From contig JAIRPH010000161.1 of assembly GCA_031257135.1 (NCBI GenBank), positions 1 to 39,405 on the forward strand: DNA of 39,405 nt. Direction: 5' to 3'. The translations under genes were made by a program, and so were the position numbers. Every line of letters begins with the position of its first letter. Position 1 is the first letter of the stretch. The notes under the pieces are model-generated. The model ran no database searches. It had not been told where the DNA came from and saw only the letters and a program-made list of their open reading frames with translations. This document shows positions 4,345 through 35,801 of this stretch, piece after piece. This stretch comes from Spirochaetaceae bacterium (GTDB taxonomy: Bacteria > Spirochaetota > Spirochaetia > Treponematales > Breznakiellaceae).

Positions 4345-5643
4345 ATGCGGGAGTTCGGCAAAGGCTATAAAATAGCGTTAGACCACGGAGGATACGCAGA
4401 GGTTATCCGAAAAATCGGAAGCGGCGGGCAGGGTATTGTTTATGAAGTTACCTTAAACGATAAACGGTATGCGCTCAAATGGTACACCTGTAGGTTTAAA
4501 AACCAAGAAGCCTTTCGGGAAAATCTGCGTTCCAATATTGAAATGGGCGCGCCAGACGATAAATTTTTGTGGCCCAAGTATCTAACCGCCGAGGAAGCGG
4601 GGAGTTTCGGTTATATTATGGATTTGCGCCCCCCGGAATTTTCTGATTTTTCGGATATTTTAAACAATACGGTGAAATTTCCTTCTACGGATATGCTGAT
4701 AAAGTCCGCCTTGAACATTGTGAACGGATTCCGAGAGCTTCACCGCAAAGGCCGGAGTTATCAAGACCTGAACGACGGCAATTTTTTCATCAACGCCGCC
4801 ACCGGGGATGCGCTTATCTGCGATAATGACAACGTCACCCCCGGAGACCAGAAAAACAGCGGCGACGTAGGGGGAAAGCCGGGGTATATGGCGCCTGAAG
4901 TGTTTCGGGGAGACGCTCACCCTAATTCCCTGACCGACTTTCATTCGCTGGCGGTGATTCTGTTTAAGCTGTTCCTCCGGCATGATCCCCTTTGGGGGGC
5001 GGCTCATGAGCGCGCGCCGTGCATCACGGAAGAGCTGGAAATGGAACTCTACGGTACGAATCCGGTATTCATCTTTGATCCCGAGGATGCTTCAAACCGT
5101 CCGGTCAACGGGGTTCATCCGAATCCGATCAACCTCTGGCCCCGGTATCCTGAGTTTTTTCAGAATGCCTTTATCGAATCCTTTGTCAAAGGCATGAAAG
5201 ACCCTAACGCGCGCCTTCCGGCGAATGAATGGCAGAAGATTCTCATCCGCCTCCGGGACGAAGCTATCTCGTGTCCCTTCTGCAAACGGGACTGGCCCAT
5301 TACCAAGCTGAGTCAGAACAGTCCCATAGCCTGTCCCTGCGGGCGGACCTTCAGCGCGCCTCTGCGCCTCCAAACCGGCAAGTACGGGGTTCCGCTGTTT
5401 CCGGGAAAGAAGCTCTACGGATGCCATACCATAGACGGAAGCGACGATTATCATACCGCTACCGGCGAAGTCATTATGAACAAGCATAATCCCGGACTGT
5501 GGGGAATCAAAAACCTCTCGAAAGAGGATTGGGAAATGACAAGCCCCGGGGGAGAACCCAAAAAAATAACTCCCGGATCGGTGGTCCCTATTGGAACCGG
5601 CGTATCTGTGGTTTTCAAGGAACTTACCGGTAAGATACTATAA
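4345..5643 (+). CDS. Ser/Thr protein kinase-like protein with a C-terminal zinc ribbon and a beta-rich (FHA-like?) tail; kinase component of a TerY-P-type triad
   Basis: 432 aa. Gly loop GSGGQG, Lys in YALKWY, catalytic loop YQDLNDGN (Asp141/Asn146), DND in place of DFG, GYMAPE, DFHSLAVIL. CPFC-x17-CPC at residues 310-332. Confidence 0.85.
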   Translation: MREFGKGYKIALDHGGYAEVIRKIGSGGQGIVYEVTLNDKRYALKWYTCRFKNQEAFRENLRSNIEMGAPDDKFLWPKYLTAEEAGSFGYIMDLRPPEFSDFSDILNNTVKFPSTDMLIKSALNIVNGFRELHRKGRSYQDLNDGNFFINAATGDALICDNDNVTPGDQKNSGDVGGKPGYMAPEVFRGDAHPNSLTDFHSLAVILFKLFLRHDPLWGAAHERAPCITEELEMELYGTNPVFIFDPEDASNRPVNGVHPNPINLWPRYPEFFQNAFIESFVKGMKDPNARLPANEWQKILIRLRDEAISCPFCKRDWPITKLSQNSPIACPCGRTFSAPLRLQTGKYGVPLFPGKKLYGCHTIDGSDDYHTATGEVIMNKHNPGLWGIKNLSKEDWEMTSPGGEPKKITPGSVVPIGTGVSVVFKELTGKIL

Positions 5644-5652
5644 GGAAAAAAT

Positions 5653-6384
5653 ATGAGTGATGAGATGTTCGGCGATGTCCAAGGCATCGTGCGCAGACAG
5701 ATGGTATTGTTTCTCTTGATTGATACCTCCGGCAGTATGGAAGGGGAGAAAATCGGCATTGTAAACAATACTATCCGAGAGGTACTGCCTGAGCTTCGGG
5801 ACATCGGCGGCGCGGACGTAGATTTGAAAATAGCCGCTTTAGCGTTCTCTACCGGCTGTAAGTGGCTTCATGCCGAGCCGGTTTCGGCGGACGCCTTTCA
5901 GTGGAACAACATGGAAGCTGACGGCGTAACCGATTTAGGAGCGGCTCTGCGGGAACTGAACTCGAAAATGTCGAAGGATACCTTCTTAAAAGCCCCTTCC
6001 GCGTCGGTGGCTCCGGCGATTTTTCTCTTATCTGACGGACAGCCTACGGACGATTACGACGGCGGACTTGAACTCCTGCGGAAGAACAACTGGTATAAGT
6101 ACGCTATTCGGGTAGCTCTCGCCATAGGGGGCGACGACGCCGACAAAGACGTACTGGCGAAATTTACCGGCAACAAGGAAGCGGTTATTACGGTGCATAC
6201 TCCTGAAGCCTTGCGGCGATGGATACGGTTTATTACCGTAACTTCCACTCAGATAGGGACTAAAAGTCAGCCCCTACAGGACGGTCAGATAGAAACCAAA
6301 CAGAATCAGATGACCGAAGCGATCCAACAGCAGACCGATCCGGATATGATTGATTCAGTATCTACCGACGAGGGTTCATGGTAG
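5653..6384 (+). CDS. von Willebrand factor A domain protein, TerY-like
   Basis: 243 aa. MIDAS DTSGSM, GVTDLGAAL, LLSDGQPTD. AAGGA sits 7 nt upstream of the ATG. Confidence 0.85.
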   Translation: MSDEMFGDVQGIVRRQMVLFLLIDTSGSMEGEKIGIVNNTIREVLPELRDIGGADVDLKIAALAFSTGCKWLHAEPVSADAFQWNNMEADGVTDLGAALRELNSKMSKDTFLKAPSASVAPAIFLLSDGQPTDDYDGGLELLRKNNWYKYAIRVALAIGGDDADKDVLAKFTGNKEAVITVHTPEALRRWIRFITVTSTQIGTKSQPLQDGQIETKQNQMTEAIQQQTDPDMIDSVSTDEGSW

Positions 6385-6388
6385 CGCA

Positions 6389-7321
6389 ATGTTTACAGGA
6401 TTCAAAGCGGTTGCCCCGGGTTTCAGTCATAACGAACAGAATTGTCAGGATGCGGCTGACGCGATCCTGCTGAACCGGCGCGACGGCGTCGGCATCGCCT
6501 TAGTAGCGGACGGTCACGGAAGCAGACGGCACTTCAGAAGCGCCCGGGGAGCGGAACTTGCGGTACAGGTCGCGAAGGAAGCTATTACTCGGTTCATCGA
6601 AATAACCGAGGAAAAAAACGCGGTCTTTTGGAACGAAACTATTCGGGCTAATCCGAAAAAAGCCGCTGAAACCCTCAGACAGCTTGAAAGCAATATTATC
6701 TATTGCTGGCGGGAAGCGGTACTGCGCCACAGTAAGACAAGCCCTTTTACCGGCGAAGAACATACGCTGTGTACTGAAAATAATATCAACCTCGAAGATG
6801 AAAACGATCTGGTTGCAATATACGGGTCTACTCTGCTGGGAGCGGTGATTGCTCAGGAATTTTGGTTCGCCATACAGATTGGAGACGGCGCGTGCGTGAT
6901 TATTACCGACCGCGGCAAAGTGGAGATAGGAATCCCTGAAGACAAACGCCTTGAATTCGGGCGGACTACCTCGTTATGCAATACCGACGCGTTGGAAAGT
7001 TTCCGGCACCGCTTCGGCGAGCGCATCGCCGGAATTACGGTTGCAAGCGACGGAGTTACGGATTCATTTCTTCCCAATAAGTACGCCGACTTCACTATGC
7101 AGTTGCTTAGAAACTTCGTCAGGTATCCTGACCTTGCGGAGCGGAATTTGCAGTCATTTTTACCGGAATTATCCCGGCGGGGCAGTAACGACGATGTTTC
7201 TCTGGCGGGTATTTTTGACCTCGCCCAGGGGAAACATATTCTTAACGAACTGCCCGCGGAAACGCCGAACAGCAATCCTGCCGAGTACGGCGAATATTGT
7301 ACCTCGGACGCTGGGAACTAA
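6389..7321 (+). CDS. PP2C-family Ser/Thr phosphatase (bacterial PP2C_2 type)
   Basis: N-terminal GFSHNEQNCQDA, ADGHGS, GSTLLG, IGDGA, ASDGVTD, NDDVSL. Start set to ATG 6389, 4 nt after the vWA stop; the ORF track starts at 6350. Confidence 0.85.
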   Translation: MFTGFKAVAPGFSHNEQNCQDAADAILLNRRDGVGIALVADGHGSRRHFRSARGAELAVQVAKEAITRFIEITEEKNAVFWNETIRANPKKAAETLRQLESNIIYCWREAVLRHSKTSPFTGEEHTLCTENNINLEDENDLVAIYGSTLLGAVIAQEFWFAIQIGDGACVIITDRGKVEIGIPEDKRLEFGRTTSLCNTDALESFRHRFGERIAGITVASDGVTDSFLPNKYADFTMQLLRNFVRYPDLAERNLQSFLPELSRRGSNDDVSLAGIFDLAQGKHILNELPAETPNSNPAEYGEYCTSDAGN

Positions 7322-21043: not shown

Positions 21044-21559
21044 ATGAGAAGATTACGGACACTTGTGGAAGGGGCGACGTATCATGTTGCCTCGAAAATC
21101 GACCATGACGATCCGGCTTTGCGGGAGTCGGCGTTTAAACAGGGCTTTTTGGACTTTGTGACTAAGGCGAAAAAGCGGTTTTCCTTTAAATTATGGAATT
21201 TTATGGTTATGGATAATCACATTCATTTTCTCATTAAGCCCGGACCCGGAGTATCTTTGTCCAAGATAATGCAGTGGATTAAGTGTAATTTTGCCAAATG
21301 GTGGAATAAAATGCACAATACCAAGGGGCATCTGTGGGGGGACCGGTTCTTTTCCCGAATAATCAAGGACGAAAAGGACTTTGAAGCGGTATCTGAGTAT
21401 ATCGACGAGAATCCGGTGAAAGCGAAGCTGGTGAAAACAGCGAAAGAATGGCGGTTCGGCGGGTTATTTCACCGGCTGAGGCGGATTTTCGGCATTATTG
21501 ACAGCGGGACGGACTTTGTGAAGCGCTTTGCCCCGGATATACGTCCGCCGCCGATATGA
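21044..21559 (+). CDS. IS200/IS605-type Y1 (HUH) transposase-like protein, REP-associated tyrosine transposase (RAYT)-like
   Basis: 171 aa. YHVASK N-terminus, HUH motif DNHIHFLIKP, GHLWGDRFFS, catalytic-Tyr region SEYIDENPVKAKLV, EWRFGG. Confidence 0.8.
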   Translation: MRRLRTLVEGATYHVASKIDHDDPALRESAFKQGFLDFVTKAKKRFSFKLWNFMVMDNHIHFLIKPGPGVSLSKIMQWIKCNFAKWWNKMHNTKGHLWGDRFFSRIIKDEKDFEAVSEYIDENPVKAKLVKTAKEWRFGGLFHRLRRIFGIIDSGTDFVKRFAPDIRPPPI

Positions 21560-28367: not shown

Positions 28368-28934
28368 CTAGCTTTCTTTATTTTGAGAAGTATCCTCAAC
28401 CGGAGGCTTTGAACCAAGAGAAATAAGAACCAGCAGAAGCCCGGTCAAAACCACCAGCAGAGGCCACCATTGCATCATAAAGTGAGCAAACGAAAAGGGT
28501 ACCATATTGAAAGAAAAAATGAGAAGTACCGAACCAAGTATGATAAACGCAATCCCCGGAACCACATAGCGGCTTCGGAACGCGCCATACCGATGCCAGC
28601 CTGCGGGAATAAGAGCAAACCCGGAAAAAACTGAAATAAGGGGCCAAGCCTGAGAAAAGGATACAGGGATAATTTTCAGAGCCGACAGAAAAAGAAAAAA
28701 TCCCAATAGCATAAAAAAGCCCGCAAAAAACAGATACAGCGACCGTTTGTTGAGTTTTATCGCCAATACCGCGCATCCTGAACCGAGAATCACAAAAAAG
28801 AACGCCCGCAGTACAGAAATCCAGGAAGCTCCTGTAATCGTTCCCAACAGAAACGCGCTCCCCAAAAACATGAGTAGCAGACCGATAATAAAAATACACC
28901 GCGCAATAAGCCGCCGAGTCAAGGGAGAAAACAT
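28368..28934 (-). CDS. integral membrane protein, about 6 TM helices, unknown function
   Basis: 188 aa, almost entirely hydrophobic helices. Preferred over the overlapping same-strand ORF 28396-28956, which has low-complexity, non-membrane-like composition. Confidence 0.65.
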   Translation of the reverse strand: MFSPLTRRLIARCIFIIGLLLMFLGSAFLLGTITGASWISVLRAFFFVILGSGCAVLAIKLNKRSLYLFFAGFFMLLGFFLFLSALKIIPVSFSQAWPLISVFSGFALIPAGWHRYGAFRSRYVVPGIAFIILGSVLLIFSFNMVPFSFAHFMMQWWPLLVVLTGLLLVLISLGSKPPVEDTSQNKES

Positions 28935-28940
28935 AGGTAC

Positions 28941-28969
28941 AGCATACCAAAATCACTCGATAAAAACAA
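28941..28969 (-). promoter_or_regulatory. sigma-70-like promoter TTGTTT-17-TATGCT, 6 nt before ATG 28934 (leaderless geometry)
   Basis: Minus strand: TTGTTT at 28969-28964, TATGCT at 28946-28941. Confidence 0.35.
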
Positions 28970-28990
28970 GAGCATACGCCGCCGCACGCC

Positions 28991-29020
28991 GGGTGTCAGA
29001 CACTAGACGAGGTGTCAGAC
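28991..29020 (+). repeat. two copies of GGTGTCAGACA 19 bp apart; the first is an 11-bp perfect palindrome (GTGTCAGACAC). Reverse-complement relative of the TGACTGACACC motif
   Basis: Copies at 28991-29001 and 29010-29020, in the divergent intergenic region between the membrane-protein gene and the nitrogenase-like operon. Confidence 0.75.
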
Positions 29021-29102
29021 ATAAGTTCTCGCAAGTCGAAACGCCGGCTTATATTCCTCTTCGCGCCAAATACGTTGAAAACGGGAAAACGCTGGTATCC
29101 TC

Positions 29103-29131
29103 TTGACATTTTTGAGATTATATCCTACTTT
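29103..29131 (+). promoter_or_regulatory. sigma-70-like promoter of the nitrogenase-like/met operon, TTGACA-17-TACTTT
   Basis: TTGACA 29103-29108, TACTTT 29126-29131, AGGAG 29153-29157. Confidence 0.45.
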
Positions 29132-29163
29132 TTCTATGTGTTTAATATAAATAGGAGATGTGT

Positions 29164-30636
29164 ATGACTGACATCAATCTACGCGCTCAGGCGGCTCCGG
29201 TGCGGGAACGGCGGCTTGGCTCAATCACCGGCTATGCGGGTACCGCCGGAGATCTGGTGGGGTGCGCCAGACGAGGGACCTTAAAGGAAAAGAACCGATC
29301 CTTCAGCCAGTGCCTGGGTTGCTCCACCTCCAATGCGGCTTGTACGGTGATCCTAATCCAGGATGCGGCAGTAGTGAGCCACGGTCCGGTGGGGTGCGCG
29401 GGGTGCCTCCACGAATTCGCCTTTACCTACCGAGTCAACGGCGTTCACCGGAACCTGAAGGAACCGACCCCCCGGCGGATATTCAGCAGTAACATGGGGG
29501 AAGCCGACACGGTGTACGGCGGCAAGAAGAAACTGACGGAAGCCGTCCGGGAAGCCGCCCGGCGGGCAACGCCAAAGGTCATTTTTATCATCACCACCTG
29601 CGCGTCAGGGATCATCGGGGAAGATGTGGAACGCGTTGCCGAAGAAGCCGAGGAAGAGCTGGGCATCCCCGTGGCGGCGATCTTCTGCGAAGGCTTCCGT
29701 TCTCGGATATGGACATCCGGCTTTGACGCGGGCTATCACGGCATCGCCCGGAAGCTCATCAAAAAGCCGGAGAAAAAGCAGGAAGACCTTATCAATATCA
29801 TAAACTTCTGGGGAGCCGACCTCTTTGGGCAGTGGTTCAGCCGTCTGGGACTTCGGGCGAACTACCTGACCCCCTACGCCACGGTCGCCCAGATCGCCTC
29901 GTCTTCGGAAGCCGCGGCGACTATCCAGATTTGCGCCACTCTGGGTTCCTACATGGGGGCGGCGTTGGAACAGGGCTTCGGCGTGCCGGAGATCAAGGTG
30001 AGTCCTCCCTACGGCATCCCCCAGACCGAGCGTTGGTTCCGGGAACTGGGACGCGTTACTCATCGGGAGGAGGCGGTGGAGGACTTTCTGCGGGAGGAGC
30101 GGGAAATATGGACGCCCGAAATCGAAGCCCTGCGGGAGAAGCTCCGGGGTAAGACCGCCTACGTTACCGCCGGGGCGTCCCACGGGCATTCCCTGCTGGC
30201 TGTCCTCCGTGAGTTGGGTATGGAAGTCCAGGGGGCGGCGATCTTCCATCACGATCCCCTCTACGATAACGGGGCGGTGAGCGCGGACACCCTGCAAAAC
30301 GTGGTCAGCGATTACGGAGACGTTTCCCGCTACAATGTCTGCAACAAGCAGGAATTCGAGCTGGTGAATATCCTGAACCGGACGCGTCCCAACATTCTCC
30401 TTGCCCGGCACGGGGGCATGACCCTCTGGGGCGCGAAATTCGGCATACCCTCCCTCCTTATCGGGGATGAGCATTTCGGCATGGGCTATCAGGGACTGGT
30501 TCAATACGGTAAGCGCATCCTTGATACCCTGGAAAACGACGAGTTTGTGAAGAATCTGGAAAAGCACGCCATCAACCCCTACACCGCATGGTGGCTTGAA
30601 CAGGACCCCTACACCTTTTTAGGAGACGGGCAATGA
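29164..30636 (+). CDS. nitrogenase component-1-type oxidoreductase, alpha (NifD/NifE-like) subunit; nitrogenase-like (Nfl/Mar-type) enzyme
   Basis: By-eye alignment to NifD: LGC (Cys62 equivalent), SHGPVGCAGC (Cys88 equivalent), ITTCASGIIGEDV (Cys154 equivalent), IFCEGFRS. Start set to ATG 29164, 6 nt after AGGAG; the track starts at 29158. Confidence 0.88.
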   Translation: MTDINLRAQAAPVRERRLGSITGYAGTAGDLVGCARRGTLKEKNRSFSQCLGCSTSNAACTVILIQDAAVVSHGPVGCAGCLHEFAFTYRVNGVHRNLKEPTPRRIFSSNMGEADTVYGGKKKLTEAVREAARRATPKVIFIITTCASGIIGEDVERVAEEAEEELGIPVAAIFCEGFRSRIWTSGFDAGYHGIARKLIKKPEKKQEDLINIINFWGADLFGQWFSRLGLRANYLTPYATVAQIASSSEAAATIQICATLGSYMGAALEQGFGVPEIKVSPPYGIPQTERWFRELGRVTHREEAVEDFLREEREIWTPEIEALREKLRGKTAYVTAGASHGHSLLAVLRELGMEVQGAAIFHHDPLYDNGAVSADTLQNVVSDYGDVSRYNVCNKQEFELVNILNRTRPNILLARHGGMTLWGAKFGIPSLLIGDEHFGMGYQGLVQYGKRILDTLENDEFVKNLEKHAINPYTAWWLEQDPYTFLGDGQ

Positions 30637-31967
30637 CCGGTCCTCTTGAGCAACAGCGTTATATGTGCGCCATCGGAGCTATGCAGACCGTGGTGGCTAT
30701 TCCCCGGGCAATCCCGATCCTCCATTCTGGACCCGGTTGCGGCGCCATGGTGGCGGGCTTCTTCGAGCGTTCCCGAGGCTATTCCGGGGGTTATACCGCG
30801 CCGTGTACCAACTTCTCCGAAACCGAGGTGATCTTTGGGGGAATTAAAAAGCTGGAGACCCTGATCCGTCATTCCTACCGCGTTCTCGACAGCGATTTGC
30901 AGGTGATCCTACCGGGCTGTACCTCCGCGATTGTGGGGGACGACATCGGCGAAGCGGCCCGACGCTTTGCCGCGGATGGAAAGCCTATCGTCTTTGCCAA
31001 TGCGCCGGGCTTCAAGTTCTCGAACTATGAGGCTCACAGCGTGATTGTGAACGCCATTATCGATCAGTACACGGATAGGTTCGCGGAACGCGGAGCGCCA
31101 ACGGACGCGAAACTGGTGAACCTCTTTGCCTCGGTGCCTTATCAGGATCAGTTTTGGAAGGGGAATCTGGAAGAACTCAAATATCTCATCGAGGGTATCG
31201 GACTCAAGGCGAACATCTTCTTTGGTCCCCGTTCCACCGGGGTAGGAGAATGGCGCGCTATTCCCCGGGCGAATTTCAACATTCTGGTATCGCCCTGGTT
31301 CGGCTTGGAGATCGTGGAACACCTGCGGGAAAAATACGGACAGGATTACTATCAGTTCCCGCATCTGCCCATCGGGGGCAATGGGAGCGCGGAATTCCTG
31401 CGGGGACTCTATGCCTTTGCCAACGAAAAGCAGGCGGGACTTGATGTGACGGCGGCGGAGCGGTTCATTACGGCGGAGGAACAGGCGTTCTACGAGGAGA
31501 TCGACAATCTTGCTACCTTCCTACTGGAATTCCGCTACGGACTCCCGTCTTTTGTTCATATCCTCCACGACGCCAGCTACGTTCTGGGCATGGCGAAATT
31601 CCTACTCCACGAAACAGGGATCGCTCCTAAAGAGCAGTTCATCACCGATAACACCCCGGCGGCGTATCAGCAGGAGATCCGCCGTCTTGCCGCACGAATC
31701 TCGGACAAAAAGGAGATACCCGTCTATTTCGAGAGCGATGCAGGGCTTGCCCAGGAACGGATCGCCGCCCTGAACCGCGAGGGACGAGGACTTATCATCG
31801 GGTCAGGCTGGGACAAAGCGCTTGCGGAACGCAAGGGCTGGGACTTCCTTTCGGCGGCGTTGCCTTCACCCTACCGGCTTGCCATGACCGCCGGATACGC
31901 CGGATACCGGGGAGGCTTACGGCTCATCGAAGATATTTATAACACGGCATTGATGACGTACCGGTGA
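30633..31967 (+). CDS. nitrogenase component-1-type oxidoreductase, beta (NifK/NifN-like) subunit
   Basis: 444 aa. MCAIGA, HSGPGCGA and LPGCTSAIVGDDI match the three NifK P-cluster Cys contexts. The start overlaps the alpha stop (ATGA). Confidence 0.88.
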   Translation: MTGPLEQQRYMCAIGAMQTVVAIPRAIPILHSGPGCGAMVAGFFERSRGYSGGYTAPCTNFSETEVIFGGIKKLETLIRHSYRVLDSDLQVILPGCTSAIVGDDIGEAARRFAADGKPIVFANAPGFKFSNYEAHSVIVNAIIDQYTDRFAERGAPTDAKLVNLFASVPYQDQFWKGNLEELKYLIEGIGLKANIFFGPRSTGVGEWRAIPRANFNILVSPWFGLEIVEHLREKYGQDYYQFPHLPIGGNGSAEFLRGLYAFANEKQAGLDVTAAERFITAEEQAFYEEIDNLATFLLEFRYGLPSFVHILHDASYVLGMAKFLLHETGIAPKEQFITDNTPAAYQQEIRRLAARISDKKEIPVYFESDAGLAQERIAALNREGRGLIIGSGWDKALAERKGWDFLSAALPSPYRLAMTAGYAGYRGGLRLIEDIYNTALMTYR

Positions 31968-31973
31968 GGCGGC

Positions 31974-32762
31974 ATGAACAGCGCGTTTATACAGATACGA
32001 AGGCTTTACAAAAGTTTTCAGGGCAGAGGGCGGATTTTCGCCGTCCTCAAAGGGATCGATCTTATGGTTCAGCGAGGGGACATCTTCGGGATTATTGGGT
32101 TCAGCGGGGCGGGCAAGTCAACGCTGATACGATGCATCAACCGTCTGGAAACGCCCGATTCAGGCAGTATTACCGTTGACGGACAGGAGGTCATGGACCT
32201 CCGCCCGGAAGAGCTGGGAGACTATCGGCGCAAGATCGGGGTTATCTTTCAGCACTTCAATCTGCTGGATTCCCGCACAGTGGCGGGGAACGTGGCATTT
32301 CCTCTGGAGATCGCCGGCGGCGGACGAGCCGCCATTGCCCGGCGGGTAGGAGAGATTCTGGAACTGGTGGGACTGGGAGACAAGCGGGACTTCTACCCCG
32401 GACAACTTTCGGGAGGACAGAAACAACGGGTGGGAATCGCCCGGGCCCTGGCGAACAACCCGGCGATCCTCCTCTCCGATGAGGCAAAGTCGGCGTTAGA
32501 CCCCCTCACGTCCTTATCGATTCTGGATCTTCTCATTGATATCAACCGGAAGCTGGGGCTGACCATCCTGCTTATCACCCACGAGCTGGATGTGATCCGG
32601 TACGCCTGCGACAGAGTGGCAGTTCTGGAAGACGGAGTAATAGCCGAATCGGGAAGCGTGAAACGCGTGTTTTTGAACCCGGTAAGCGAAACGGCAAAAC
32701 TCTTTATGAAGATAAACCGGGATTTTTCCAGCCGGGAATGGCGGGACGGAGGCGGTATATGA
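31974..32762 (+). CDS. metN: methionine-type ABC importer ATP-binding protein (short form, no C-terminal NIL domain)
   Basis: 262 aa. Walker [10 protein letters not shown], signature [15 protein letters not shown], Walker B ILLSDEA, H-loop ITHEL. Confidence 0.88.
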
Positions 32763-33472
32763 ACGCCGCGGGTTTGGCGAAACTGGCGGGGACGATACAG
32801 AGCGCATTCAGCGCGGCAACATGGGATATGGTCTGGTCTTCTATTGGGCAGACCCTGTATATGACCGCGCTTACCACAATTCTGACGGGGATCTGCGGAC
32901 TTATTCTGGGGGTGTCCCTGCTGATAACCGACCGGGACGGGCTTTGCCCCATGCCGGTATTCAACGCGGTAGCCGGAGGAATCGTAAACGCCCTCCGTTC
33001 CATGCCGTCGGTGATCATCATCATTCTGACCCTGCCCTTATCGCGGCTCATCATCGGCGTTTCCTACGGACCCAGGGCTTGTATCATCGCCTTGGCAGTT
33101 ACCTGCATCCCCATGTTCGCCCGGCTGGTGGAAAGCAGTATCCTGGAGGTTCCCAAAGGCAAGGCGGAAGCGGCGGCGGCCATGGGCGCGAAGAAACGGG
33201 ACATTGTGTTCAAGGTGCTACTCCCTGAAGCCCTGCCTAACCTGATACGAAGCTTTACCATCGCGGTGATCGCTATCATTTCCACCACAGCCTTGGCGGG
33301 TTCTTTCGGCGCAGGCGGTCTGGGGGATGTGGCGGTGCGGTACGGGTACAACCGATTCAGGGGAGATGTTCTCATCGCGGCGGCGCTGGCGCTGATCATC
33401 ATGGTAAACCTGGTACAGTTCGCCGGCGCGGGCGCATCCAAAGCCATCCTGAAACGGCGACATTTACTATAG
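32759..33472 (+). CDS. metI: methionine ABC transporter permease
   Basis: 5 TM segments, EAA-like loop [24 protein letters not shown]. Start set to ATG 32759, overlapping the metN stop (ATGA). Confidence 0.88.
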
Positions 33473-33519
33473 GAAACAAGCCCGCCATAGCGCGGACTTA
33501 TTATAACGAAGGAGTTTTT

Positions 33520-34356
33520 ATGAAAAGGACATTGGTTTTCTCTCTGACCGCGGCATTGCTGGTTGCCCTCGTATCTTGTTTTCCCTCTAACGCCGGCGTC
33601 AGCGCAAGCAAGGAAGTTCGCGAGACGCCGCCTGAGGGCAGGACAACCCTCAAGATCGTGGCGGACATCGTTCCTCACCAGGAATTGCTGGAATTCGTCA
33701 AACCCGGACTTGCCGCGAAGGGCATCGATCTGGAGATTTATAACACCGAAGGCAGACTTGCCAACGAACAGACTTCCAACGGCGAATTCGACGCAAACTT
33801 CTTTCAGCACGAGCCGTACCTGAAATCGGTATCGGCGGAACAGGGTTTTGACCTCGTAAACGCCGGCAACATCCATGTGGAGCCTATCGGCGCGTATTCG
33901 GAGAAGTACAAGACCCTCGAGGAGATTCCCCTTCATGCGGTAATTGCCCTTCCTAACGACGCCACCAACGAGTTCCGGGCTTTGACGATTCTGTCCCAAA
34001 ACGGTTTTATTACGCTCAAGGAAAATACCGAGGTCTTCAACACCTCCATTCTGGATGTGGCGGAGTACCTCAAGCCCGTTACCCTCGTGGAGCTTGACGC
34101 CGCGGCGATCATCCGCATCCGGGATCAATTCGATGTGTACATCACCAACACCAACAAGGTGCTGGAAGCGGGGATAGATACCGGCGGGGTCCTGTTTCGG
34201 GAAGGGGCGGATTCGCCCTACGCGAATATCCTAGCGGTAAAGTCCGGCAGGCTGAACGATCCGGCAATCCGGGCGTTGGCGGCGGCGTTGACCTCCGAAG
34301 AGGTTCGGGTCTTTATCGAAAACAAGTATCACGGCGCGGTGATACCCGCGTTTTGA
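33520..34356 (+). CDS. metQ: MetQ/NlpA-family lipoprotein (methionine-binding protein)
   Basis: 278 aa. Signal plus Cys (LLVALVSCF). LPNDATNEFRALTILSQNGFITLK is typical of MetQ. Confidence 0.88.
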   Translation: MKRTLVFSLTAALLVALVSCFPSNAGVSASKEVRETPPEGRTTLKIVADIVPHQELLEFVKPGLAAKGIDLEIYNTEGRLANEQTSNGEFDANFFQHEPYLKSVSAEQGFDLVNAGNIHVEPIGAYSEKYKTLEEIPLHAVIALPNDATNEFRALTILSQNGFITLKENTEVFNTSILDVAEYLKPVTLVELDAAAIIRIRDQFDVYITNTNKVLEAGIDTGGVLFREGADSPYANILAVKSGRLNDPAIRALAAALTSEEVRVFIENKYHGAVIPAF

Positions 34357-34373
34357 ACAAAAGGAGTATGGCT

Positions 34374-35681
34374 ATGTTAAACGAAGGATTGCATTTTGAC
34401 ACCCTGAAGATACGGGCCGCCTACGACCCGGCGGAACATCGGCAGTCTGTGGCGGTGCCGATCTACCAGACCGCGGCATACGAATTCCGGGATACCGCCA
34501 ATGCCGACGGACTCTTCGCCCTCACCGATCCGGGGTTCCTCTATACTCGGGTAAACAACCCCACGGTGGACGTGCTGGAAAGACGGGTCGCAACCCTGGA
34601 CGGCGGGTCCGCGGCCATAGCCCTAGCATCGGGTATGGCGGCGATCTCCTACACCATCCTCAGCCTTGCCGAAGGCGGCGGGCGGATTCTGTCCAGCCCC
34701 TATCTCTACGGCGGGAGTGTGGACGCCTTTCAGAAGATATTCCCCAAGTTCAACATCCACATCGACAAATCGCCGAACATCAATGACATCGCCGCCCTGG
34801 AAAGGGACCTCAAAAGCGATACCAAGGCGATCTTCGTGGAATCCGTGAGCAATCCCAATGGCGTCGTGGCAGACATGGAGGCTCTAGCCGCCCTAGCTCA
34901 CAAACACGGCATCCCTTTAGTGGTGGACAATACCTTCGCCACGCCCTATTTGCTGAATCCTATCAAGCACGGGGCGGACATTGTGATCTACTCCGCCACG
35001 AAGACCCTGAACGGCCACGGCAACCTTATCGCAGGGCTGGTGGTGGAAACCGGCACGTTCCCCTGGGACAACGGGAATTTCCCCCAGTTCGAGGAGACCC
35101 AGTACGTCTTACGGGACAGGTCCACCGGACGGAAGCGCACATTTCTGGAACTTACCCCGGATGCGCCCTTTGTAACCCGCATACGGCTCCACTACCTCAA
35201 TTACTTCGGCGCGGCGCTGGGACCCTTCGACGCCTACCTAGCCCTGCTGGGTATTGAGACCCTTTCAGAGCGGGTGACTAAGCAGGTAAGCAACGCCCAG
35301 AAAGTCGCCGAGTGGCTGGAAAAGAACCCCCATGTGGAATGGGTCAGGTATCCGGGGCTACCCTCCAGTCCCTATCACGCCCTAGCGAAGAAGTACCTGC
35401 CCAAAGGCGCCGGGGCGATCTTCTCCTTCGGCTTCAAGGGAACTATCGAGCAGAGCGAGGCGTTCCTCAACGCCATAGAGCTGTGGAGCTACCATGTGAA
35501 TGTAGGAGACGCCCGCTCCCTCATCGTCAACTCCCCCAAAACGACCCACGGGGAGCAGACGCCGGAGGAGCAACGGTTCGCCAATATCCCGCCGAACCTC
35601 ATCCGGCTTTCCCTGGGACTGGAAGACCCTGCCGACCTTATCGCCGATCTGGATCAGGCTTTTAAGAAGGTGTTTAGGTAA
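34374..35681 (+). CDS. metY: O-acetylhomoserine sulfhydrylase / aminocarboxypropyltransferase (PLP-dependent, Cys/Met metabolism family)
   Basis: PLP-Lys motif YSATKTLNGHG, DNTFATPYL. Start set to ATG 34374, 7 nt after AGGAG; the track starts at TTG 34353. Confidence 0.88.
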   Translation: MLNEGLHFDTLKIRAAYDPAEHRQSVAVPIYQTAAYEFRDTANADGLFALTDPGFLYTRVNNPTVDVLERRVATLDGGSAAIALASGMAAISYTILSLAEGGGRILSSPYLYGGSVDAFQKIFPKFNIHIDKSPNINDIAALERDLKSDTKAIFVESVSNPNGVVADMEALAALAHKHGIPLVVDNTFATPYLLNPIKHGADIVIYSATKTLNGHGNLIAGLVVETGTFPWDNGNFPQFEETQYVLRDRSTGRKRTFLELTPDAPFVTRIRLHYLNYFGAALGPFDAYLALLGIETLSERVTKQVSNAQKVAEWLEKNPHVEWVRYPGLPSSPYHALAKKYLPKGAGAIFSFGFKGTIEQSEAFLNAIELWSYHVNVGDARSLIVNSPKTTHGEQTPEEQRFANIPPNLIRLSLGLEDPADLIADLDQAFKKVFR

Positions 35682-35801
35682 TCCGGGCATTCGCCCATAT
35701 TTCCTATGTAGAGCCGGTTGGAAAAATCTCCGGCTTTACGACAGTAAAGTACTGTTGAGACGTTTAACGGCTGAGTTCCCGAGGTATAATCCGCAGGTCA
35801 A

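Follow-up and report, generated by a model that had tools for sequence, protein, structure and literature searches.

A Group IV-A nitrogenase-like gene pair in a putative sulfur-salvage operon of a Spirochaetaceae bacterium

Introduction

What does a nitrogenase-like enzyme do when its genes stand in one operon with genes for methionine uptake and synthesis? The question is raised by a contig of a Spirochaetaceae bacterium of termite-gut type (GenBank assembly GCA_031257135.1, contig JAIRPH010000161.1), analysed here over its whole length of 39,405 nucleotides (the window), in which six consecutive genes encode two nitrogenase-like subunits (D and K), a MetNIQ-like importer, and MetY, an O-acetylhomoserine sulfhydrylase (OAHS). 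An earlier note, made from the letters of the sequence alone, had read the pair as a methylthio-alkane reductase (Mar) serving sulfur salvage and had pointed out that the usual reductase (H) and maturase (B) genes are missing. Here, we place the pair in its family, examine its cluster ligands and active site, survey the surroundings of its relatives, and weigh sulfur salvage against nitrogen fixation and other explanations.

Clade placement of the D/K pair

D and K are adjacent paralogues that overlap by ATGA and match PF00148 (Oxidored_nitro) over their full length—D with E = 2e-83 (residues 55-458) and K with E = 4e-60 (residues 13-439). Together with the aligned ligands described below, these matches bear out the earlier assignment of the pair to component 1 of the nitrogenase family with P-cluster cysteines. 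Both proteins nevertheless fell below every NCBIfam cut-off for Nif, Vnf, Anf, NifEN, and Bch families. Identity as NifDK, VnfDK, AnfDK, or NifEN was rejected: D scored best against NifE (165 bits against a cut-off of 505) and reached 127 bits against the NifD cut-off of 654, and K reached 60 bits as NifK, where the cut-off is 427.

Among solved structures, the best match to D was, by a wide margin, PDB 9fmg_A/9d9u_A (E = 2e-133), and that to K was chain 9d9u_C (E = 2e-112). We identify these chains as MarD and MarK because, once rebuilt from the alignments and with the MarD numbering checked against 9fmg_A and the literature, they reproduce M70, C73, Y98, I101, H194, C270, and H429 of Rhodospirillum rubrum MarD. 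D is 76-77% identical to NfaD of Endomicrobium proavitum (P0022), the type member of Group IV-A, as opposed to 43-44% to R. rubrum MarD, and K is 63% identical to E. proavitum NfaK. P0022 (locus L002) is equated with NfaD because its cysteines at positions 50, 53, 60, 78, and 81, like Cys13 and Cys37 of the neighbouring K, match exactly the numbering published for NfaD (Cys50/53/60/78/81) and NfaK (Cys13/37) in a 2026 Chem Rev review, which also describes E. proavitum as having a single nitrogen-fixation-like (NFL) system.

The close relatives of D, at 66-93% identity, are spread over Treponema and Spirochaetia of termite guts, Endomicrobium, Synergistaceae, and many Clostridia. When representatives were chosen at 50% identity, the entire clade collapsed into one sequence (P0111), with the next lineages at 46% identity or less. 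In a neighbour-joining tree of 71 sequences, which is distance-based and carries no bootstrap or other support values, window D lies in a tight clade with E. proavitum NfaD that also takes in sequences from Acetobacterium tundrae, Ruminococcus albus, Paenibacillus, and Ruminiclostridium. The sister group of this clade is the Mar clade, in which the Mar-type sequences P0244, L028_2095, and L030_9071 group separately with R. rubrum MarD. As judged from tree and identities, the pair is a member of Group IV-A (Nfa), beside E. proavitum NfaDK, and not of Group IV-C (Mar), and the earlier Mar model is not supported. It follows that a sulfur role for the pair conflicts with the label of its own clade and is not derivable from plain Mar homology.

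Cluster ligands and active site

The cysteine contexts quoted in the earlier note (HGPVGC, TTCASGIIGEDV, HSGPGC, and PGCTSAIVGDDI) are all present. In D, the P-cluster ligands are C53, C78, and C146, equivalent to MarD C66/C91/C158 and at the same positions as NfaD C53/78/146; in K, they are Cys12, Cys36, and Cys96, equivalent to NfaK Cys13/37/97 and MarK Cys32/56/121. The ligands of the L-type cluster correspond to C257 and H416 of D (MarD C270/H429). Across 83 clade members, C66, C91, C158, C270, H429, W195, F199, F374, and H375 (MarD numbering, used below for the active site) are invariant, and D shows strong purifying selection, with a ratio of nonsynonymous to synonymous substitution rates (dN/dS) of 0.07 relative to the 93%-identical protein of locus L005.

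The substrate-binding environment is a different matter. From the Mar active-site set of H194, W195, S196, F199, F374, and H375, window D keeps four residues and has replaced H194 and S196. His194, conserved in all active Mar enzymes (Mar, Mar1, Mar2), is Ile in window D and Ile, Val, or Met—never His—in the 83 clade members; Ser196 is Thr in window D and always Thr in the clade; and in the channel, window D has Asn, Phe, and Thr in place of Met70, Tyr98, and Ile101. Because His194 and the channel residues differ throughout the clade, the substrate of Group IV-A enzymes, to the extent that it can be read from these positions, is probably not identical to that of Mar.

At two related loci, L028 (2095-5100) and L030 (9071-12000), the cluster with the Group IV-A pair contains another D/K pair, this one of Mar type, which shows the HWS motif and 58-61% identity to MarD; only one H and one B were detected nearby. 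The presence of both kinds of pair in one genome argues that the two clades are not redundant and have different specificities. More distant third D/K pairs (26-31% identical) were seen in L051, L060, L069, L071, L076, and L078.

Genomic context across the Group IV-A clade

We surveyed the surroundings of related pairs by scanning one genome per species, which gave a best set of 80 loci, all Group IV-A; 88 related loci were gathered in all. Proteins of the window and of the E. proavitum cluster served as tblastn seeds for locating neighbours, which were counted within 10 kb of D/K wherever the flanks extended for 5 kb or more on each side (48 loci). Of these loci, 44 (92%) had one or more sulfur genes. 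MetY was found at 33, a cystathionine gamma-synthase (CGS)-type enzyme dependent on pyridoxal phosphate (PLP) at 31, CysK at 28, an NMT1/Ssu-type binding protein at 20, and MetQ at 17; among the nitrogenase-associated genes, H was found at 39 (81%), B at 37 (77%), and a NifX-like gene at 40. One complete arrangement is frequent: B, NifX-like, H, D, K, metN, metI, metQ, NifX-like, CGS, cysK, metY. The sulfur-salvage role proposed earlier is thus upheld in one respect and not in another—context does argue for sulfur/methionine acquisition, but Mar homology no longer serves as its basis. That Group IV-A genes lie beside sulfur and methionine genes had already been noted for mlp gene clusters (2023 preprint).

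Nine of the 48 loci (19%) had neither H nor B within reach (DK-only). The earlier note had called this architecture unusual; both genes are indeed absent from the window, but the arrangement proves to be a recurrent minority form. It accounts for 5 of 11 spirochaete loci (the window, L001, L008, L085, and L087) and is scattered over several lineages, and each such locus has relatives 64-93% identical that do have adjacent H and/or B. Spirochaete layouts with H or B include metY-metNIQ-D-K-B-X-H (L090; X, NifX-like), metY-metNIQ-D-K-B-X (L091), metY-D-K-B-X-H (L088), H-D-K (L006 and L089), and NMT1-H-metY-D-K (L086). In the closest Treponema relatives, the six genes of the window are reordered as metY-metNIQ-D-K and followed by B and a NifX-like gene, with H as well in L090.

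The characterized cluster of E. proavitum shows the same wiring. It reads metY, Ssu-type ABC importer, D, K, a 90-aa fragment, NifX-like, CGS, CysK, B, NifX-like, H; B, H, the two NifX-like genes, the CGS-type enzyme, CysK, and the Ssu/NMT1-type importer are found there only, and the window has D, K, metNIQ, and metY. Common to both are metY and an ABC importer, with metQ surviving in E. proavitum as a remnant. This remnant is the 90-aa fragment itself (L002:12928-13200, E. proavitum CP009498.1), which lies directly past nfaK, represents the C-terminal part of a MetQ/NlpA lipoprotein, and is 67% identical to residues 189-277 of window MetQ (E = 5e-38); no metN or metI is left. Its position behind nfaK implies that the cluster of the "Group IV nitrogenase" once had the D-K-metNIQ layout seen in the window. 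The two proteins also have in common the extra cysteines (Cys50/60/81, E. proavitum numbering) and Ile at MarD position 194. The published function of the E. proavitum system (NfaBHDK), N2 fixation, differs from what the context of the window suggests, even though the two pairs belong to the same clade.

H genes beside Group IV-A D/K fall into two identity classes relative to E. proavitum NfaH, one ~73-87% identical (e.g. L006, L012, L013, and L064-L083) and the other ~47-52% identical (Ruminococcus and many other Clostridia), so the D/K clade pairs with two H lineages (loci L006-L083). A search with NfaH returned no Treponema entry among its best 120 matches (at least 84% identical) and is uninformative on H in trans.

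Several further observations were made at individual loci. At the DK-only locus L001 (8687-9998; Treponema primitia AEEA01000051.1), the metY directly upstream of D consists of two overlapping open reading frames (ORFs) of 354 and 111 aa, which suggests a frameshift or sequencing error. Loci L071 ("Methanosarcina sp.") and L069 ("Patescibacteria group bacterium") encode D proteins 58-59% identical to that of the window and ~80% identical to those of Bacillota loci, and their host labels probably reflect mis-binning rather than real hosts. The locus of the Treponema endosymbiont of Eucomonympha (L086) carries, at 1-755 and ~9 kb from D/K, a gene of the URO-D family (PF01208), which we take to be the methyltransferase family of "mlp" clusters, as well as four tandem SBP_bac_3 binding-protein genes and a transposase downstream. 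The two ORFs upstream of D in L005 matched no family in a Pfam scan.

Probable horizontal acquisition of the block

The six genes stand out from the rest of the window in composition. G+C content at third codon positions (GC3) is 0.65-0.75 in the operon genes, compared with 0.47-0.64 in the 25 other window genes (Mann-Whitney p = 2.7e-6), and their relative synonymous codon usage correlates with that of the rest of the window at 0.68, where random six-gene sets reach 0.87-0.93. Windowed G+C is 0.56-0.61 in the block and about 0.50 in its flanks. The earlier note had taken a hint of foreign origin from two 60-nt lines of 58% and 63% G+C; both values are correct, and the GC3 and codon-usage tests bear out the hint. 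At the nucleotide level, similarity to L005, the closest relative (88% identity), begins exactly at 29101, upstream of which the DNA is unrelated. Around the block, a search for flanking repeats or insertion scars found only repeats of chance size. In the D phylogeny, sequences from Spirochaetota, Elusimicrobiota, Synergistota, and Bacillota intermingle at 70-80% identity, a pattern that fits lateral spread among gut anaerobes. The six-gene block was probably acquired horizontally.

Proposed function and competing explanations

We consider it fairly probable that the block is an acquired sulfur/methionine-salvage operon in which a Group IV-A reductase cleaves a C-S bond and feeds MetY. The sequences show D and K equipped for a P-type cluster between the two subunits and, on Cys257 and His416 of D, for an L-type, [Fe8S9C]-like cluster, as in the solved Mar enzyme. 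A NifH-family ATPase encoded elsewhere in the genome would deliver electrons, and a NifB-family radical S-adenosylmethionine enzyme, likewise encoded elsewhere, would build the cluster. Reductive C-S cleavage of an organosulfur compound, to which gene context and the sister-clade Mar both point, would then release methanethiol or sulfide, and MetY—a clear member of its family, with a presumed coupling to the reductase—would join the product to O-acetylhomoserine, yielding methionine or homocysteine. The MetNIQ-like importer is predicted to be co-expressed in the same sulfur-starvation response and to take up methionine or a methionine-like thioether; such co-regulation appears to us a simpler reading than delivery of the reductase substrate. 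Because the Cys/His ligands for an L-type cluster are conserved, a NifB-type maturase should still be needed, which makes supply of H and B in trans much more likely than use of another electron donor. We infer this supply in trans also from precedents: NifB is able to replace MarB, NflDK3 of Rhodopseudomonas palustris has no H or B of its own, and in Heliophilum one NflH reportedly serves five D/K pairs.

Characterized systems offer partial parallels. MarBHDK of R. rubrum (Group IV-C; PDB 9FMG, 9D9U) belongs to the sister clade, is the best solved-structure match, and has the same P- and L-type ligands; it differs in its low identity and in the replaced residues listed above, in the N-terminal Cys-rich insertion of MarD that is absent from window D, and in the inclusion of marB and marH in the marDK operon. 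Methanethiol produced by Mar is used by OAHS, and R. rubrum under sulfate limitation co-induces marBHDK, metINQ homologues, and OAHS. Closest in layout is NflDK3 (RPA2363-2364; bioRxiv 10.64898/2026.08.20.746119), like the window a DK-only pair beside a methionine transporter and OAHS; it has conserved cluster ligands, is induced by sulfate limitation, and lies ~9 kb from the H and B genes of R. palustris. Compared by its published description only, it is reportedly 52-56% identical to MarDK1 and thus probably nearer to Mar than the window pair is. The isethionate reductase IsrBHDK of Rhodobacter capsulatus (Group IV-F) is likewise nitrogenase-like and encoded in a sulfur-starvation cluster, where it cleaves a C-S bond for sulfur assimilation; this cluster contains Ssu/Tau-type ABC importers, analogous to the many Group IV-A loci with NMT1-type importers. 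Isr belongs, however, to a distant clade, is predicted to hold only a [4Fe-4S] cluster, without L-cluster ligands, and its IsrB comprises the radical-SAM domain only.

A number of points weigh against a sulfur role for the window pair. No activity on sulfur compounds has been reported for any Group IV-A enzyme, and NflDK3, the published locus of like architecture though probably nearer to Mar, showed none on any organosulfur compound tested (bioRxiv 10.64898/2026.08.20.746119). His194, present in every active Mar enzyme, is never found in the clade. Gene neighbourhood is an association and not reaction chemistry, and the absence of H and B applies to the 39,405 nt of the window, which is the whole contig and not the whole genome. 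The only physiology on record for Group IV-A is growth on N2, reduction of acetylene, and uptake of 15N2 in E. proavitum and Heliophilum, and nfaH of E. proavitum is expressed only without ammonium. This physiology could be taken at face value, in which case the pair would be an alternative nitrogenase (Nfa) served by NifH and NifB from elsewhere, with the met genes incidental. The close identity of its D to NfaD of an organism with a single NFL system that grows on N2 speaks for this, as do the diazotrophy of Heliophilum fasciatum without canonical nifHDK and the slow reduction of N2 by L-cluster scaffolds such as NifEN (2026 Chem Rev review). N2 fixation by Group IV-A is known from physiology only, the enzyme never having been isolated, and the same review doubts that it is the primary function, on the grounds of low activity, arrested growth, gas that may have been contaminated with fixed nitrogen, and the absence of key nitrogenase residues. 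The genomic evidence also runs the other way: 92% of clade loci lie amid sulfur-assimilation genes, and the window D/K genes are translationally coupled in one operon with metNIQ and metY. No homologue of the nitrogen regulator P-II (GlnB/NifI) was found in the 1.49 Mb of the 88 loci, a weak test made with an approximate probe and without a positive control, and no P-II, AmtB, NifA, or NifEN family member occurred in ten Pfam-annotated loci. We regard the nitrogenase explanation, the main rival to sulfur salvage, as unlikely.

If the enzyme does act on sulfur compounds, it might be a bona fide Mar with the R. rubrum substrates—dimethyl sulfide, ethyl methyl sulfide, and 2-methylthioethanol—as the earlier note proposed. 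The best structural matches are MarD and MarK, all metal-cluster ligands as well as W195, F199, F374, and H375 are held in common, and MetY is adjacent, as the Mar pathway requires; yet MarD is only 43-44% identical and falls in a separate clade, none of the 83 clade members has the Mar residue at position 194 or 196, and the channel is altered. L028 and L030 hold a Mar-type pair beside their Group IV-A pair, and even Mar1 and Mar2 of R. palustris, 65% identical to each other, differ in substrates. Taken together, these differences make a true Mar distinctly improbable. It is less probable still that D/K is a stranded, non-functional remnant, or works with a different electron donor, after loss of H, B, and NifX-like genes. 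None of these genes is found in the 39 kb of the window, in L090 and L091 K is directly followed by B and a NifX-like gene (L090 also has H), and clusters of this kind do decay, as the metQ remnant of E. proavitum and the split metY of T. primitia illustrate. Both ORFs are intact, however, with every ligand kept, a dN/dS of 0.07 against the closest relative, and translational coupling to intact met genes; DK-only loci recur in several lineages, and published systems share H and B in trans. We know of no nitrogenase-family component 1 that works without an H-type ATPase. Sulfur salvage by a Group IV-A reductase, with H and B borrowed from elsewhere in the genome, therefore remains the explanation that we prefer.

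Operon layout, encoded proteins, and neighbouring genes

The gene arrangement is largely as first described (Table 1): the six co-directional ORFs all exist, with families assigned by Pfam and NCBIfam profiles, and a direct reading of the sequence bears out the ATGA overlaps at 30633 and 32759, the 6-nt gap before metN (31967 to 31974), the 47-nt gap before metQ, and the near-abutment of metY, whose start lies 11-17 nt past the metQ stop. For metY, the best start is the ATG at 34374, behind AAGGAG, and the TTG at 34353 would overlap metQ. For D, the ATG at 29164 is likelier than that at 29158, with AGGAG 6 nt upstream and a product of 490 aa equal to the database protein P0001.

Table 1 Features of the six-gene block (window coordinates)
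Feature	Position	Strand	Evidence and remarks
Whole six-gene block	29101..35681	+	Compositionally distinct, probably horizontally acquired module
5' leader and left edge of acquired block	29101..29163	+	TTGACA 29104-29109; AGGAG ribosome-binding site 29153-29157
nfaD-like gene, alpha-type subunit of Group IV-A nitrogenase-like component 1, 490 aa	29164..30636	+	PF00148
nfaK-like gene, beta-type subunit, 444 aa	30633..31967	+	PF00148; start overlaps D stop (ATGA)
metN-like ABC ATPase, 262 aa	31974..32762	+	TIGR02314
metI-like ABC permease	32759..33472	+	NF008049 (E = 3e-45), PF00528; ATG overlaps metN stop (ATGA)
metQ/nlpA-family substrate-binding lipoprotein, 278 aa	33520..34356	+	PF03180; lipobox LVSC, residues 17-20
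metY, O-acetylhomoserine sulfhydrylase, PLP-dependent	34374..35681	+	PF01053, TIGR01326; alternative starts ATG 34368, TTG 34353

Regulatory signals were less evident. The promoter-like site reported earlier amounts to a lone perfect TTGACA at 29104 with no acceptable -10 element; a consensus scan called no sigma-70-type promoter in the + strand leader, and the number of sites in the region was at shuffle level. The last ~60 nt before the D start are conserved in L005, and the TTGACA hexamer is not. An S-box riboswitch, as might be expected for a met operon, or another leader RNA was rejected, with no Rfam match upstream of D at the gathering threshold; at that threshold, the whole window contains one tRNA only, and at E <= 5 the interval 28850-29200 gave only a chance-level small RNA match. 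The terminator scan called no intrinsic terminator after metY. By eye, a weak hairpin is visible at about 35712-35735 (AGCCGG-N12-CCGGCT, then TTT), between the convergent metY and TPR lipoprotein genes, and may terminate transcription weakly in both directions. ORFs on the opposite strand within the operon were rejected as genes, being typical of G+C-rich coding sequence.

The importer is, by profile and motif comparison, a divergent member of the MetNIQ family. The MetN-like ATPase matches TIGR02314 (MetN; E = 2e-94) over profile positions 2-246 of 343 only, with 317 bits against a cut-off of 500, and because the match ends there, it lacks the C-terminal regulatory domain of canonical MetN. 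In Escherichia coli, this domain mediates inhibition of uptake by internal methionine. In other genomes, MetN-like homologues that adjoin Group IV-A D/K show 57-73% identity, and those beside D/K in L090 and L091 are likewise 262 aa long. The MetQ-like protein matches PF03180 with E = 1e-63 and scores 119 bits against the MetQ equivalog cut-off of 374; its closest matches of known structure are binding proteins of the MetQ/NlpA family, among them the methionine-binding Tp32 and E. coli MetQ, and it keeps the FFQH, PNDxTN, NTN, and SPYxNI blocks common to methionine-binding structures of this family. MetY matches PF01053 (E = 8e-120) and, over residues 14-438, TIGR01326 (E = 3e-142); its 474.5 bits lie just under the cut-off of 495, yet TIGR01326 is its top-ranked family and the match to this subfamily is full-length.

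Elsewhere in the window, the reported lack of a NifH- or NifB-type gene is confirmed, as a search of all six frames of the 39,405 nt found neither the NifH P-loop GKGGxGK[ST] nor the radical-SAM motif CxxxCxxC, and Pfam scans of the other large ORFs found no nif-type gene. Those ORFs include a histidine kinase, a sigma-54 activator, a kinase/VWA/PP2C trio, TPR proteins, a methyl-accepting chemotaxis protein, oxidoreductases, and an IS200-type transposase, among others. The trio at 4345-7321 (+), with adjacent genes for a Ser/Thr protein kinase, a VWA-domain protein, and a PP2C phosphatase, is the "TerY-P"-like group of the earlier note and is preceded by a PAS histidine kinase and a sigma-54 response regulator at 195-2755. 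The transposase, an IS200-type Y1 enzyme at 21044-21559 (+) (PF01797, E = 8e-19), lies ~7.5 kb upstream of the operon, and no link between it and the block was found.

Conclusions

The locus itself is modest news—one more pared-down, rearranged, horizontally transferred copy of a known module. Both the link between Group IV-A and sulfur genes (2023 preprint) and a DK-only locus beside a methionine transporter and OAHS (R. palustris) were already known. Its wider interest lies in the clade to which the pair is assigned. Group IV-A has been filed as the sole nitrogenase-like clade that fixes N2 without NifEN and the canonical active-site residues, and it has been used in arguments on nitrogenase evolution, while the 2026 review questions N2 fixation as its primary function. 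Judged by the window and the 88 loci related to it, the clade is almost always wired into sulfur assimilation, E. proavitum included; its partners are MetY, CysK, an enzyme of cystathionine type, and importers of the MetNIQ or Ssu type. The case for Group IV-A as a sulfur enzyme at heart gains strength from this context survey and from the metQ remnant of E. proavitum.

More broadly, Group IV-A "Nfa" enzymes, that of E. proavitum included, may primarily be C-S reductases of a mobile salvage module widespread in gut and rumen anaerobes, a proposal towards which we lean neither for nor against. N2 fixation would then be a side activity of the L-type cluster, and the window would represent a minimal D/K-metNIQ-metY form of the module that borrows NifH and NifB from the ordinary nitrogenase system of its host. 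The clade is common in anaerobes of the termite, rumen, and human gut, and whether its members are nitrogenases or sulfur enzymes is testable in the cultivable Ruminococcus albus, Acetobacterium tundrae, Treponema primitia, and Ruminiclostridium cellobioparum.

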